From: Escherichia coli
Lineage (GTDB): Bacteria > Pseudomonadota > Gammaproteobacteria > Enterobacterales > Enterobacteriaceae
Assembly (NCBI RefSeq): GCF_003334315.1
Contig: NZ_QOWR01000022.1
Length of the DNA stretch: 64,000 nt
Direction: 5' to 3' (one strand)
The position numbers were made by a program, and so were the translations under genes. Shown here piece after piece: positions 27,660-30,570 of the stretch. The notes beneath the pieces are model-generated. The model saw only the letters and a program-made list of their open reading frames with translations, ran no database searches and was not told the DNA's origin. Position 1 is the stretch's first letter. The number at the start of each line of letters is the position of its first letter.

Positions 27660-30251
27660 TCAGAACGTCCAAACCACACCCGCCTGAGTATTCCACGGCG
27701 ATTCTACCCCTGCGCCATTGCCATAGCTGACTGACAAATGACCGCTTAACGTCGGGGTAAACGATGACCTTATCCCAGCCTGATAAACGCCACGGGTTCC
27801 AGCCACATCATTATTAAATTTGCCATCGTCATTAACTTTCACCTGGTTAGAATCGGCGTATTCCTGACGTACGGCCGCTTTCAGCCAGGGTTCCAGCGTC
27901 GTACCATTTTGCAGGTCCATGTGATAGCTTACCGCCGTTCCCGCTTCAGCGCGTAATATCCGGGTATTTCCCACATCAGCGCGCATGCCGTTTGATAACG
28001 TGTAGTCCTGACCATCTGTGGTAAAGCCGGTAAAGGCCAGATAGGGTCTAACACTCCACAATCCGTCAACCCAACGGAACCCGCTCTCAACATGAGCACC
28101 CGCGCCGTTACTATTGTAATCGCCAAACGCTGTTGCCCCATTACTCATCTTGCCATGGATGGTGTTGGCAAAACGGTCAACTTTCACCACCCCATCAACA
28201 TAGGCACCGTTCTGATGCTCCCAACCGGCATAAGCCCCCAGGGTATAGCTATCGATATTACCTTTTCCGCCGCGATCAAAACCAATATCAGAATGAGAGT
28301 AACCAAAGAACAAGCCGCGAATTGTACTGCTTTCTTCACGGGAGAAACGGCTATCGATACCGAGCGTCAGGCCCGTCAATGTTTGCTCAAAACCAGCTCC
28401 CGCATCAGTGGTCACGTTGTTGCGGGTGTTAATTGCCGAACTCCACATCGCCGTATCGTAACTAACGCCTTTTACGCTACCAAGACGCTCACGCACGGTG
28501 TCCAGTTCTGCATCAAATACCAGCGGTTGTGCGGCCGCCATATTCAGCACATCAGTGGTTGAAGGGGTAATTTGCGCGCGATTCTCTGCCAGACTCCAGC
28601 TATGGTTGCCATTATCCAGCAAGGTATATTCATACGTACCGATATCAACAACGCCTCCGGCATTGCCCAACGTAAATGCAGCATCACCGCCGCCCGTTGT
28701 TACCAGTGTAAGGCTATCTCCTGCTGCCGGGCTGGCACCGGTGTCCGTCACGAATATTTTGAAATCACCTGTTGCCTGACCGGTGACGTTGAGCTGATCG
28801 CTCTGATGATTAGCCATATCGGTACGCATATAAAAATTGCCGTTTCCCGACAGGGTATTGGTGGTCAACGTAATGAAATTTTCCGCACTTGCCGTCACTG
28901 ATGAACGAGTCACTGGCTCATCCATCATAATCACATTTGCGTCAGACATCGCAAGGTTGGCTAAGTTGAGGAGGGTGTTTTGGTTCGTCGTAGTGATATC
29001 GGCAATGATGGTCCATACGCTATTTTCGAGCGAAACGTCCGCTTTGCTGGTATCCACGGCACCATGCGTTCTAAAAGAAGCGCCCTCAGAAACCACTACC
29101 TTACCCACCAACATTGCGGGTGCATAATTTATTTGCGGCTTCATGGCCTCAAGAATGCCATCATTCCCTCTGACTGAAACGTTAACCATTGTGCCAGCCC
29201 AGACGTTAGCGCGGCCATTGTTGATAACCATATTTTCAGAGATGGCTTTTGAGGAATACGTGATACTTCCATTCTGATATGATCGACCGAGATCATATAC
29301 CGCATTTGCCTGCACTTTCGTACCAGTATCCTTTCCCAGCGATTGCATAGTGGCATGCTTATCAAGGATAGTATCAATGGCCTGCGTGTCCTCCATAACA
29401 ATGAGCCCGGAACCATCATCCAGTTCATAATTTTTTGACACACCATCTTTTATACTAAATTGGCCTTTACTGTTTGGACCACTCACTTCCAGCGCATTCG
29501 TTGAGACAATTAATTTTCCGCCTGCTTTTTTATCAACGCCAGTTACAGTCCCGCCATCCATAACCTCCAGTAAGCCGCCACTATCTACAGTGGTATTATA
29601 AGCGAAGTCATTTTCTTCAACTCGCAAACTTCCGCCGTTTTCCAACAACATATTATTAGCAATACCATTCTTGATATCGAACTGACCGAGACGGTTTGTT
29701 CCGAATACCTCCATGGCCCGCGTGGTTGTTTTAATAGCACCGCCTGCTTTCTGATCTACCGCAAATGCAAATCCCCCCTCTTTAACCTCCAGTAGTCCTC
29801 CCTTTTCGATAGCGACAAAGACGGCCCCCCCATCTTTTTCAACGATTAAGCGCCCGCCTTTAATCGTGGTATCATTCGCTGCGCCATAAACCTGTAGCAC
29901 ACCATTATTGAGCGTAGTCTGGTTTGCCGCGCCACCCATTTGAACAATTTGATAACCGTCATTTAATACTGAGTATTCTGCGGCGCCATTTATTTCAATG
30001 TACTGATACCCTCCGTTAATTTCAGTATTATTACTTACACCAAATTCTTTTATATGCTGTTCTCCGCCAGGATTGATTTTCGTATTATTGGCGGTCCCAT
30101 AAACCAGCTGGATATCTTTTTCCAGGACAACACCATCAACTGTCTCACCATACTCAACAGTTGATGCCAATGCTATGGGTGAATATAACGCTGTAGCCAC
30201 CAGAACAGATATTGCGGAACGACAAAGAGAAACAGAACCAGATTGATGCAT
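27660..30251 (-). CDS. yejO: Type Va autotransporter YejO (adhesin-like passenger + C-terminal beta-barrel)
   Basis: 863-aa uninterrupted ORF; signal peptide, repetitive Gly/Asn/Thr-rich passenger typical of a beta-helix, C-terminal barrel ending ...QAGVVWTF. Confidence 0.85.
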   Translation of the reverse strand: MHQSGSVSLCRSAISVLVATALYSPIALASTVEYGETVDGVVLEKDIQLVYGTANNTKINPGGEQHIKEFGVSNNTEINGGYQYIEINGAAEYSVLNDGYQIVQMGGAANQTTLNNGVLQVYGAANDTTIKGGRLIVEKDGGAVFVAIEKGGLLEVKEGGFAFAVDQKAGGAIKTTTRAMEVFGTNRLGQFDIKNGIANNMLLENGGSLRVEENDFAYNTTVDSGGLLEVMDGGTVTGVDKKAGGKLIVSTNALEVSGPNSKGQFSIKDGVSKNYELDDGSGLIVMEDTQAIDTILDKHATMQSLGKDTGTKVQANAVYDLGRSYQNGSITYSSKAISENMVINNGRANVWAGTMVNVSVRGNDGILEAMKPQINYAPAMLVGKVVVSEGASFRTHGAVDTSKADVSLENSVWTIIADITTTNQNTLLNLANLAMSDANVIMMDEPVTRSSVTASAENFITLTTNTLSGNGNFYMRTDMANHQSDQLNVTGQATGDFKIFVTDTGASPAAGDSLTLVTTGGGDAAFTLGNAGGVVDIGTYEYTLLDNGNHSWSLAENRAQITPSTTDVLNMAAAQPLVFDAELDTVRERLGSVKGVSYDTAMWSSAINTRNNVTTDAGAGFEQTLTGLTLGIDSRFSREESSTIRGLFFGYSHSDIGFDRGGKGNIDSYTLGAYAGWEHQNGAYVDGVVKVDRFANTIHGKMSNGATAFGDYNSNGAGAHVESGFRWVDGLWSVRPYLAFTGFTTDGQDYTLSNGMRADVGNTRILRAEAGTAVSYHMDLQNGTTLEPWLKAAVRQEYADSNQVKVNDDGKFNNDVAGTRGVYQAGIRSSFTPTLSGHLSVSYGNGAGVESPWNTQAGVVWTF

Positions 30252-30570
30252 TGAGCTTTCATCCTATGAAATTAATTGCTGTTAAAAGCATTGGGTACAG
30301 AAAATACCCATAGCTCCATACCCGGAGTCAGTTTTTAAAAACTGTTTAAAGAAATGCACAAGTATTGTGATTGATTTTTTAGTTGTTTTTCTTGATGAGA
30401 AGCTGATGCAAAATTCCGTCTTTATAATGAAAATGATGCCAAAGCGAACGACAAGGTTGTAGTTTTCACTACATGTCCATACATAAAATGGGGTAACATT
30501 CACGCGCCTGGTAGCGTTACCAACGCTACGCTCAAACATAATGATTCTAATAAAACCTCAGGAGACTACT

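Follow-up and report, generated by a model that had tools for sequence, protein, structure and literature searches.

An intact allele of the autotransporter gene yejO in an Escherichia coli genome and its IS5-disrupted counterpart in K-12

Results

An Uninterrupted yejO Gene

The 64,000-nucleotide stretch of E. coli DNA analyzed here (contig NZ_QOWR01000022.1; hereafter the window) holds an ordinary intact allele of yejO. With a probability of about 0.9, this chromosomal gene encodes a classical (type Va) autotransporter that belongs with the AIDA-I/Ag43-like adhesins and whose mechanism would be that of its family. The coding sequence is a single uninterrupted ORF on the minus strand, which begins with ATG and closes with a single terminal stop after the residues VVWTF (Table 1). 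Neither the ORF list nor the translation contains an internal stop or a frameshift. The original prediction had claimed an intact YejO of 863 residues, and this is borne out; base-level inspection of the passenger revealed neither of the two lesions on which the claim could have failed. The length of 863 codons, together with E-values that reach 1e-111 for the best family models, indicates that the ORF is not a chance feature.

An identical protein, named YejO, is already present in public collections. Its cluster at 90% identity comprises 16,859 member sequences, and 11 of the 15 members listed are 863 residues long, most of those 11 being named YejO. The protein differs by one residue from the YejO of strain HS30-1 and by four residues from a reconstructed K-12 YejO. 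It belongs to the YejO orthologue group, being nearly identical to proteins of that name and encoded at the same place in the chromosome. The identity of the protein, the autotransporter family, the disruption by IS5 in K-12, and the strain distribution are all already on record.

Table 1. Features of the yejO locus, with positions in the window
Feature	Position	Strand	Basis
yejO coding sequence, 863 codons and stop	27660..30251	-	ORF list; PGAP "autotransporter YejO" in HS30-1, ATCC 8739, and others
Signal peptide, residues 1–29 (MHQSGSVSLCRSAISVLVATALYSPIALA, followed by STVEY after the cut)	30165..30251	-	Sequence inspection and AlphaFold2
Passenger, residues 30–561, predicted β-helix	28569..30164	-	Pfam PF16168, NCBIfam TIGR04415, PDB matches, AlphaFold2, Foldseek, autocorrelation
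Pertactin-like junction (autochaperone-type), residues 431–555	28587..28961	-	Pfam PF03212, E = 3.2e-45; PDB pertactin 1DAB, Hap 3SYJ
Linker α-helix, residues 563–592	28476..28565	-	DSSP on AlphaFold2 model, pLDDT about 95–97
12-strand outer-membrane β-barrel (translocator), residues 600–863, ending W-T-F	27663..28454	-	Pfam PF03797, TIGR01414, AlphaFold2, Foldseek
Empty IS5 target site, ATAA on the plus strand, codons 22/23	30185..30188		blastn against K-12 DH10B
yejO–narP divergent intergenic region, 319 bp, 36% G+C, without IS	30252..30570		Annotation and sequence
narP, nitrate/nitrite response regulator, divergent neighbor	30571..31218	+	PGAP of the near-identical HS30-1 locus; ORF list
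tRNA-Pro (GGG), convergent, downstream of yejO	27482..27558	+	ARAGORN, Rfam, annotation
Hairpin of 14 pairs with flanking A and T runs, located between the tRNA gene and the stop codon of yejO	27568..27598		Terminator scan

IS5 Is the Only Disabling Lesion in K-12 yejO

The gene order yejM/tRNA-Pro/yejO/narP/ccmH is the same in the window and in K-12, where the same gene at the same locus (b2190) is annotated as the pseudogene "adhesin-like autotransporter YejO." A blastn comparison with K-12 DH10B, followed by inspection of the junctions, showed that the K-12 locus is not identical and carries an IS5 of 1195 bp, with IS5 terminal inverted repeats, that is absent from the window. The element lies inside the yejO coding sequence, in the signal peptide at codons 22/23 and 63–66 nucleotides after the ATG. 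In K-12, IS5 and the 4-bp duplication around it cut off the remainder of the gene from its start codon and one half of the signal peptide, whereas the window is colinear and has a single ATAA at this position; it does not contain the K-12-type yejO::IS5 pseudogene. When IS5 and one copy of the duplication were removed from the K-12 sequence in silico, an 863-residue ORF was restored, and the IS5 insertion is the sole disabling lesion of K-12 yejO. Since the lesion is a single clean insertion, any natural allele, such as that of the window, is usable for functional tests.

Inactivation of K-12 yejO by an IS5 close to the start codon has been described (PMC11005336), and the element is reported to sit within yejO in direct orientation (PMC11677980). 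These reports and the blastn result agree with the earlier claim that K-12 carries IS5 at this locus and that yejO is disrupted there, but not with the placement of the element in the yejO–narP spacer, because it is found in the coding sequence. The spacer of the window was correctly described as free of insertion sequences, the alignment with HS30-1 being colinear across the locus, and as about 320 bp long (319 bp measured).

It can be asked whether the window derives from K-12 by precise excision of IS5, in which case the intact gene would be a revertant and not ancestral. The locus is 99.7% identical to that of K-12, and the single ATAA is just what a precise excision would produce. However, the two sequences differ by 19 substitutions and one indel over 6.5 kb, and by 10 substitutions within yejO, four of which change an amino acid. 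Most genomes have the empty site (5,050, see below), and the human faecal isolate HS30-1 matches the window more closely than K-12 does. On the substitutions at the locus and in yejO, we rejected a revertant origin, which is hardly credible. The uninterrupted gene is ancestral relative to the K-12 insertion, as had been proposed: the K-12 lineage gained IS5 in codons 22/23, and the window never had it.

Intact yejO Is the Norm among E. coli Genomes

Junction-sequence and locus searches were carried out on 5,426 complete E. coli genomes. The IS5 site is empty in 5,050 genomes, and the K-12 IS5 junction occurs in 356. Among 40 listed of these 356, most are named laboratory K-12 strains or derived lines and the rest are unlabelled. 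At least 80% of the 4.5-kb yejO locus is present in 4,281 genomes, and about 72% (roughly 3,925 of the 5,426) have the full-length locus without IS5, a class that is defined by locus match and may include small frameshifts. PGAP routinely names the intact 863-residue protein "autotransporter YejO." Intact yejO is therefore the norm and K-12 the exception, and the rarity implied by the original prediction is not borne out by these counts. The gene of the window looks unusual only beside K-12 and carries little weight as a discovery. As K-12 is atypical at yejO, K-12 phenotypes and expression data are uninformative about the intact protein. The same two-piece, IS5-containing locus match was also seen in the dog isolate THB42-F3.

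A second form of the locus is represented by the deletion junction of ST131/B2-type strains, which was found in 762 of the 5,426 genomes. The yejO remnants of B2, ST131, and uropathogenic (UPEC) strains share the locus, the 5' end, and the promoter region with the window. Unlike the window, they have deletions corresponding to positions 27690–28318 and 28776–29779 (or a variant of these), frameshifts, and stops, and PGAP flags them as pseudogenes. YejO is described as missing from ST131 (PMC5654935). The strain distribution was published in 2010: as Wells et al. are cited in PMC3426408, commensal and diarrhoeagenic genomes have YejO, and in UPEC it is truncated. At least two independent losses of the gene have occurred, through IS5 in K-12 and through two deletions in B2-type strains, which indicates that it is dispensable in some niches.

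Architecture of the Predicted Protein

The original prediction of a signal peptide, a passenger, and a C-terminal β-barrel is supported by sequence inspection, Pfam, NCBIfam, AlphaFold2, and Foldseek. By inspection, the N terminus is a Sec signal peptide with a basic n-region (Arg-11), a hydrophobic core, and Ala-Leu-Ala before the predicted cut at Ser-30. The AlphaFold2 model (mean pLDDT 89.5) is consistent with this, because pLDDT is below 50 for residues 1–28 and residue 30 begins the first strand.

Residues 30–561 are modeled almost wholly as short β-strands. The best Foldseek matches of the passenger are the Ag43 structures 7KOH and 7KO9, and Ag43 and pertactin are on top with a probability of 1.00. 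Sequence searches of the PDB matched the passenger to Ag43, TibA, and an AidA-I family adhesin, and YejO to Ag43, Vag8, TibA, BrkA, and pertactin. AIDA-type repeats (PF16168) extend over residues 52–315 with two strong and four weak matches, the strongest being at residues 184–245 and 257–315. The strand-loop-strand repeats of TIGR04415 ("heptosyltransferase-target") reach 65.3 bits (cut-off 30) in three stretches, and NCBIfam models of Ag43 and AIDA-I match the passenger in part. The β-helical passenger includes the junction (autochaperone) region expected of a type Va protein.

Autocorrelation of the passenger sequence gives peaks at lags of 18–19 residues, corresponding to the rungs, and of 74 residues, corresponding to a super-repeat. 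The imperfect AIDA-type repeats of about 19 residues that characterize self-associating autotransporters are thus present. Two of the 74-residue units share 28 of 74 residues and are 47% identical at the DNA level. Tandem Repeats Finder detected no DNA tandem repeat in yejO, and a blastp comparison of YejO with itself returned only the identity match, without an internal repeat alignment; the repeats are therefore degenerate and visible only at the protein level. In residues 30–560, Gly makes up 12.4% and Thr 9.2%, and Asn, Val, and Ala account for 8.9% each. A repetitive passenger rich in Gly, Asn, and Thr had been proposed, which holds roughly for the composition, and for the repeats in the protein but not in the DNA.

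The passenger is followed by an α-helical linker in the predicted structure, and this helix is expected to run through the pore of the barrel. The translocator is matched by PF03797 (E = 2.7e-45) and TIGR01414 (371.9 bits, cut-off 16), and the AlphaFold2 model contains twelve long barrel strands. The barrel superposes on the BrkA β-domain (Protein Data Bank code 3QQ2) with a TM score of 0.91 and an r.m.s.d. of 2.7 Å, and on EspP with TM scores of 0.81–0.87. The C terminus, G-V-V-W-T-F, has the aromatic outer-membrane targeting signal.

It is very improbable that the passenger is enzymatic or toxic (a serine protease of the SPATE type, a subtilase, or an esterase) in place of an adhesin-like β-helix; nothing was found in favor of this reading, and we rejected it on the evidence of Pfam, NCBIfam, and the AlphaFold2 model. 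The Pfam matches are confined to AIDA, Pertactin, and Autotransporter; Peptidase_S6, S8, and lipase domains are absent, and neither Pfam nor NCBIfam matches a Peptidase_S6 domain with the GDSGS motif of SPATEs. The linker helix likewise shows no evident Asn-Asn cleavage site of the SPATE kind. All NCBIfam matches are adhesin-type autotransporters. The model is a continuous β-strand solenoid without a globular N-terminal domain; Hap and IgA1 protease do appear among the structural matches, but through their β-helix stalks only and with low TM scores, below Ag43 and pertactin. The passenger prediction for which the earlier analysis had called thus returns a β-helix by AlphaFold2 and Foldseek, with no protease domain in Pfam or NCBIfam.

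Comparison with Characterized Autotransporters

Antigen 43 (Flu/Agn43; PDB codes 4KH3, 7KOH, and 7KO9) is the best match to the YejO passenger in both sequence and fold. The two proteins share the β-helix of AIDA-type repeats, the pertactin-like junction, and the 12-strand barrel, but they are only about 22–24% identical and the YejO passenger is shorter. AIDA-I and TibA (PDB codes 4MEE and 4Q1Q), which are glycosylated adhesins, have the PF16168 repeats, the three TIGR04415 repeats, and the type Va layout in common with YejO. Unlike their genes, yejO has no adjoining heptosyltransferase gene: its neighbors are tRNA-Pro and narP, and no gene of the aah/tibC type was found among the neighbors or in the annotated matching 64 kb of HS30-1. 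The score of YejO is 129.2 bits against the Ag43/Cah equivalog model NF033177 and 72 bits against that of AIDA-I, each with a cut-off of 1200. Because these scores are far below the cut-offs, function cannot be transferred from Ag43 or AIDA-I to YejO. The proteins that resemble YejO from Bordetella, namely BrkA through its barrel, pertactin (1DAB) through the junction region, and Vag8 (7AKV), belong to another genus. In detail, their N-terminal passengers are unrelated to that of YejO, and the resemblance implies no functional link.

Discussion

The layout of YejO suggests how it would reach the cell surface. The 29-residue signal peptide would direct the precursor through the Sec system, and the C-terminal barrel would be inserted into the outer membrane by BAM. 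With the linker helix filling the barrel pore, the passenger would thread outward with its C terminus first and fold on the pertactin-like junction into a surface-displayed β-helix with rungs of ~18–19 residues. The displayed passenger would most likely mediate adhesion or cell-cell association. The literature searched contained no experiment on YejO itself, so that adhesion or aggregation is assigned to it from family resemblance only. We infer the export route, surface display, a role in adhesion, and expression that is weak or conditional. The original description of YejO as an adhesin-like autotransporter with a poorly characterized function is borne out.

Among seven yejO alleles, pairwise dN/dS is 0.11–0.37 overall and, for the barrel, 0.03–0.15 in most of the pairs whose divergence was measurable. 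Synonymous divergence between the alleles reaches 8%, and the six that are uninterrupted, from different strains, all retain exactly 863 codons. The pattern shows purifying selection on the intact alleles, and the gene is therefore probably functional, which argues that YejO does something in intestinal E. coli.

It is also conceivable, but somewhat unlikely, that yejO is intact but cryptic, with its transcription silenced, for instance by nucleoid proteins acting on its A+T-rich 5' region, so that it has no practical effect and is heading for the decay seen in K-12 and B2 strains. Such a fate would fit the independent inactivations in K-12 and B2/ST131, the low G+C content of the spacer and of the 5' third of the gene (38–44%), and the absence of a consensus promoter match from the spacer described below. 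However, dN/dS stays far below 1 among alleles with up to 8% synonymous divergence, and is lowest in the barrel, and the frame length is the same in all six uninterrupted alleles. The expression data for K-12 were obtained with the allele that IS5 disrupts and are of little use for judging intact alleles. Silence under laboratory conditions is seen for many autotransporter genes of E. coli and is not equal to lack of function.

A functional yejO could be more specifically a niche-dependent surface factor, kept by purifying selection in intestinal lineages, both commensal and diarrhoeagenic, and repeatedly discarded in extraintestinal B2 strains and in laboratory K-12, and possibly co-regulated with narP under anaerobic nitrate conditions. 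This proposal is speculative and at present unlikely. If it is true, YejO would be a gut-colonization adhesin or aggregation factor, the loss of which is tolerated or even favored outside the gut.

The yejO–narP spacer must hold the promoters of both genes. It is delimited by the annotated narP start; a longer narP ORF from 30541 adds 10 codons. The spacer contains no match of 9/12 or better to the σ70 consensus, and a relaxed scan gave a single 8/12 candidate; we put forward no promoter. One NarL/NarP-type TACYYMT heptamer is found at 30305, with ~0.3 expected by chance on the two strands of 319 bp; this is about chance level, and we do not regard it as evidence for control of yejO by NarP or NarL. 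An Ag43-like Dam/OxyR switch was also rejected: the spacer contains no GATC site, unlike the region upstream of Ag43/Cah with its GATC cluster, so that yejO would not be subject to this type of phase variation. The A+T-rich spacer and 5' third of the gene would fit silencing under laboratory conditions; a literature search combining yejO and H-NS found no paper that addresses H-NS silencing of the gene. At the other end of yejO, the hairpin between its stop codon and the convergent tRNA-Pro gene is, from its position, likely to be a bidirectional intrinsic terminator.

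An uninterrupted yejO in the window and its IS5-interrupted counterpart in K-12

The yejO gene of the window is read as one uninterrupted frame for YejO, a classical (type Va) autotransporter that ends in ...VVWTF. The original prediction had claimed such a frame, a gap of about 320 bp to narP, and a locus free of insertion sequences, and all three were borne out. The gap measures 319 bp, its boundary following from the narP start assigned by the NCBI annotation pipeline (PGAP). No insertion sequence is present at the yejO locus, where the window is colinear with the human faecal isolate HS30-1 (99.96% identity over 44.7 kb). 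The long blastn alignment with HS30-1 begins at window 205, so that bases 1-204, on the psuK side, lie outside it. The hairpin between yejO and the convergent tRNA gene looks like a bidirectional intrinsic terminator.

Features of the yejO locus, of YejO, and of the surrounding window
Feature	Position	Strand or orientation	Details
L25 ribosomal-protein leader, gammaproteobacterial	23741-23766		upstream of rplY
tRNA-Pro(GGG)	27482-27558	convergent with yejO	downstream of yejO
Hairpin (AAAAAAACCAACC...GGTTGGTTTTTTT)	27568-27598		14 pairs; A and T runs both sides; between tRNA-Pro and yejO
yejO ORF	27660..30251	-	863 codons; ATG start, single terminal stop (ORF table)
yejO-narP spacer	30252..30570		36% G+C
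narP	start 30571 (PGAP)	divergent from yejO	upstream of yejO
narP-ccmH segment	31247-31397		~151 bp
REP-like sequence	31336-31370		inside the narP-ccmH segment
mqo-eco tandem array	44471-44910		3.9 copies of 113-bp unit, 96% matches
MicF sRNA	52957-53050		upstream of ompC
Shorter array	56708-56919		1.9 copies of 114-bp unit
AIDA repeats, weaker	reaching back to residue 51		Pfam
AIDA repeats, two strong	residues 184-245 and 257-315		Pfam
Pertactin	residues 431-555		Pfam, E = 3.2e-45
Autotransporter beta-domain	residues 602-841		Pfam, E = 2.7e-45

When window 25500-32000 was aligned with K-12 DH10B, two blocks were obtained, 25500-30188 and 30185-32000, which are separated by 1195 bp in K-12. 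This insert carries the IS5 inverted repeat GGAAGGTGCGAA at both its ends, and 4 bp (ATAA on the plus strand) are duplicated, one copy on each side. On the coding strand, the duplicated bases make up codon 22 (Leu) and the first position of codon 23 (Tyr), both of which encode part of the signal peptide's hydrophobic core. Because IS5 interrupts these codons, the PGAP annotation splits K-12 yejO into two pseudogene fragments of 23 codons and 2544 nt, with the IS5 transposase gene between them in the same orientation. Published work likewise has IS5 inactivating K-12 yejO near the start codon (PMC11005336) and places the element within yejO in direct orientation (PMC11677980). The original prediction was right that IS5 disrupts K-12 yejO; however, its title placed the element in the yejO-narP intergenic region, and it actually lies inside the coding sequence.

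In silico removal of IS5 and one duplication copy from K-12 restores the 863-codon ORF, indicating that IS5 is the sole disabling lesion. The restored protein differs from that of the window at four residues (I87M, A369V, F648I, and R820S). Residue 369 (window 29145-29147) is alanine in the window and valine in HS30-1, ATCC 8739, A3019, and K-12; Ala-369, in the passenger, is a rare or private substitution.

Intact yejO is the usual allele

Allele frequencies were counted in 5,426 complete E. coli genomes. A 120-bp empty-site probe was at least 80% covered in 5,050 of these, and a 120-bp probe for the K-12 yejO/IS5 junction matched in full in 356. The 4.5-kb locus was at least 80% covered in 4,281 genomes, IS5 carriers included, which leaves by subtraction about 3,925 (72%) with a full-length locus lacking the K-12 IS5. 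Among the 40 junction matches listed, most are named laboratory K-12 strains (MG1655, DH5alpha, C600, J53, and similar) or derived lines, and a few have no K-12-type label.

Most of the remaining genomes contain decayed yejO remnants. In B2-type strains, ST131 among them, two stretches are deleted: window 27690-28318, within the barrel, and 28776-29779, within the passenger. PGAP marks these remnants as frameshifted or incomplete, and the ST131/B2-type internal deletion junction was found in 762 genomes. yejO has been reported missing from ST131 (PMC5654935). A second remnant type has slightly shifted deletion end points. The blood isolate A3019 has an in-frame 789-residue allele without residues 168-241 (window 29529-29750), exactly one 74-residue super-repeat. 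This allele is annotated as an intact protein, and the passenger length of YejO therefore varies naturally.

A protein identical to that of the window is already public under the name "autotransporter YejO" in a 90%-identity cluster of 16,859 member sequences. The strain distribution of yejO was reported by Wells et al. in 2010, as cited in PMC3426408: the gene occurs in commensal and diarrhoeagenic genomes, and it is truncated in UPEC. Intact yejO is the form in which this known, named gene usually occurs and is not novel; the original prediction identified a real feature and interpreted it correctly except for where K-12 carries its IS5.

Architecture and proposed role of YejO

In addition to the Pfam domains, YejO matches two NCBIfam models: TIGR01414, the autotransporter barrel domain, at 371.9 bits, and TIGR04415, a strand-loop-strand repeat. 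The passenger has periodicities of 18-19 and 74 residues, visible at the protein level only, and no protease or other enzyme domain was found in YejO. An AlphaFold2 model built on an 84-sequence alignment (mean pLDDT 89.5, pTM 0.71) has a disordered segment (residues 1-28), short β-strands (30-561), a helix (563-592), and twelve long strands (600-862). The closest solved structures by sequence are Ag43, Vag8, an AidA-I family adhesin, TibA, BrkA, and pertactin. In Foldseek searches of the PDB, Ag43 ranks first for the passenger, and the barrel resembles the BrkA β-domain (TM 0.91, 2.7 Å rmsd) and EspP (TM 0.81-0.87).

On the pattern of established type Va autotransporters, YejO would be exported by Sec and its signal peptide then cleaved after A-L-A29. 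BAM would insert the barrel, its pore occupied by the linker helix, and the passenger would emerge C terminus first, folding on the pertactin-like junction into a β-helix displayed at the surface. Given its likeness to Ag43, AIDA-I, and TibA, YejO most likely serves in adhesion or cell-cell association. YejO nevertheless does not qualify as a member of these specific families: it scores far under the cut-offs of the NCBIfam Ag43 and AIDA-I equivalog models, as it does for BafA, has no adjacent heptosyltransferase gene, and lacks the upstream GATC sites of an Ag43-type phase switch. Among 1.84 billion cluster representatives, 2,177 relatives were found; beyond the YejO group, the nearest full-length ones share only about 44% identity with it, and YejO therefore forms its own orthologue group. 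No experimental study of intact YejO was found in the searchable literature.

Selection on yejO

Pairwise Nei-Gojobori comparison of seven yejO alleles (dS up to 0.08) gave dN/dS values of 0.11-0.37 overall; for most pairs with measurable divergence, the passenger gave 0.14-0.49 and the barrel 0.03-0.15. Each of the six uninterrupted alleles in the comparison has a length of exactly 863 codons. Both the low ratios and the constant frame argue for a live gene and against a cryptic and decaying one. Decay would accord with the spacer, in which no consensus promoter was recognisable and which is A+T-rich, as is the 5' third of yejO, and with independent losses, which show that the gene is dispensable in some settings. 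The K-12 locus is also rarely transcribed (PMC10392735), but that transcription comes from a disrupted locus. We rate a functional but conditionally expressed yejO as more probable than a cryptic and decaying one.

Other features of the window

Similarity to the window ends at or just inside tRNA-Pro (~27513-27560) in several genomes, among them ST131 strain 4224, O26 RM10386, and ETEC4079. Unrelated hypothetical genes follow the break in strain 4224, which points to an island having inserted at this tRNA gene in such strains. The narP-ccmH segment is present in the window, K-12, and HS30-1 and absent from ATCC 8739, A3019, and B2-type strains; it resembles an insertion polymorphism of the REP/BIME type. 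Its REP-like sequence probably explains why the 4.5-kb locus query had about 40 matches per genome.

The tandem array in the mqo-eco intergenic region contains three matches to Rfam naRNA4 (REP325-type repeats). HS30-1 has three extra units (339 bp), and the copy number therefore varies between close relatives. The shorter array is of the same kind, with two naRNA4 matches on the minus strand. MicF and the L25 leader are at their expected places.
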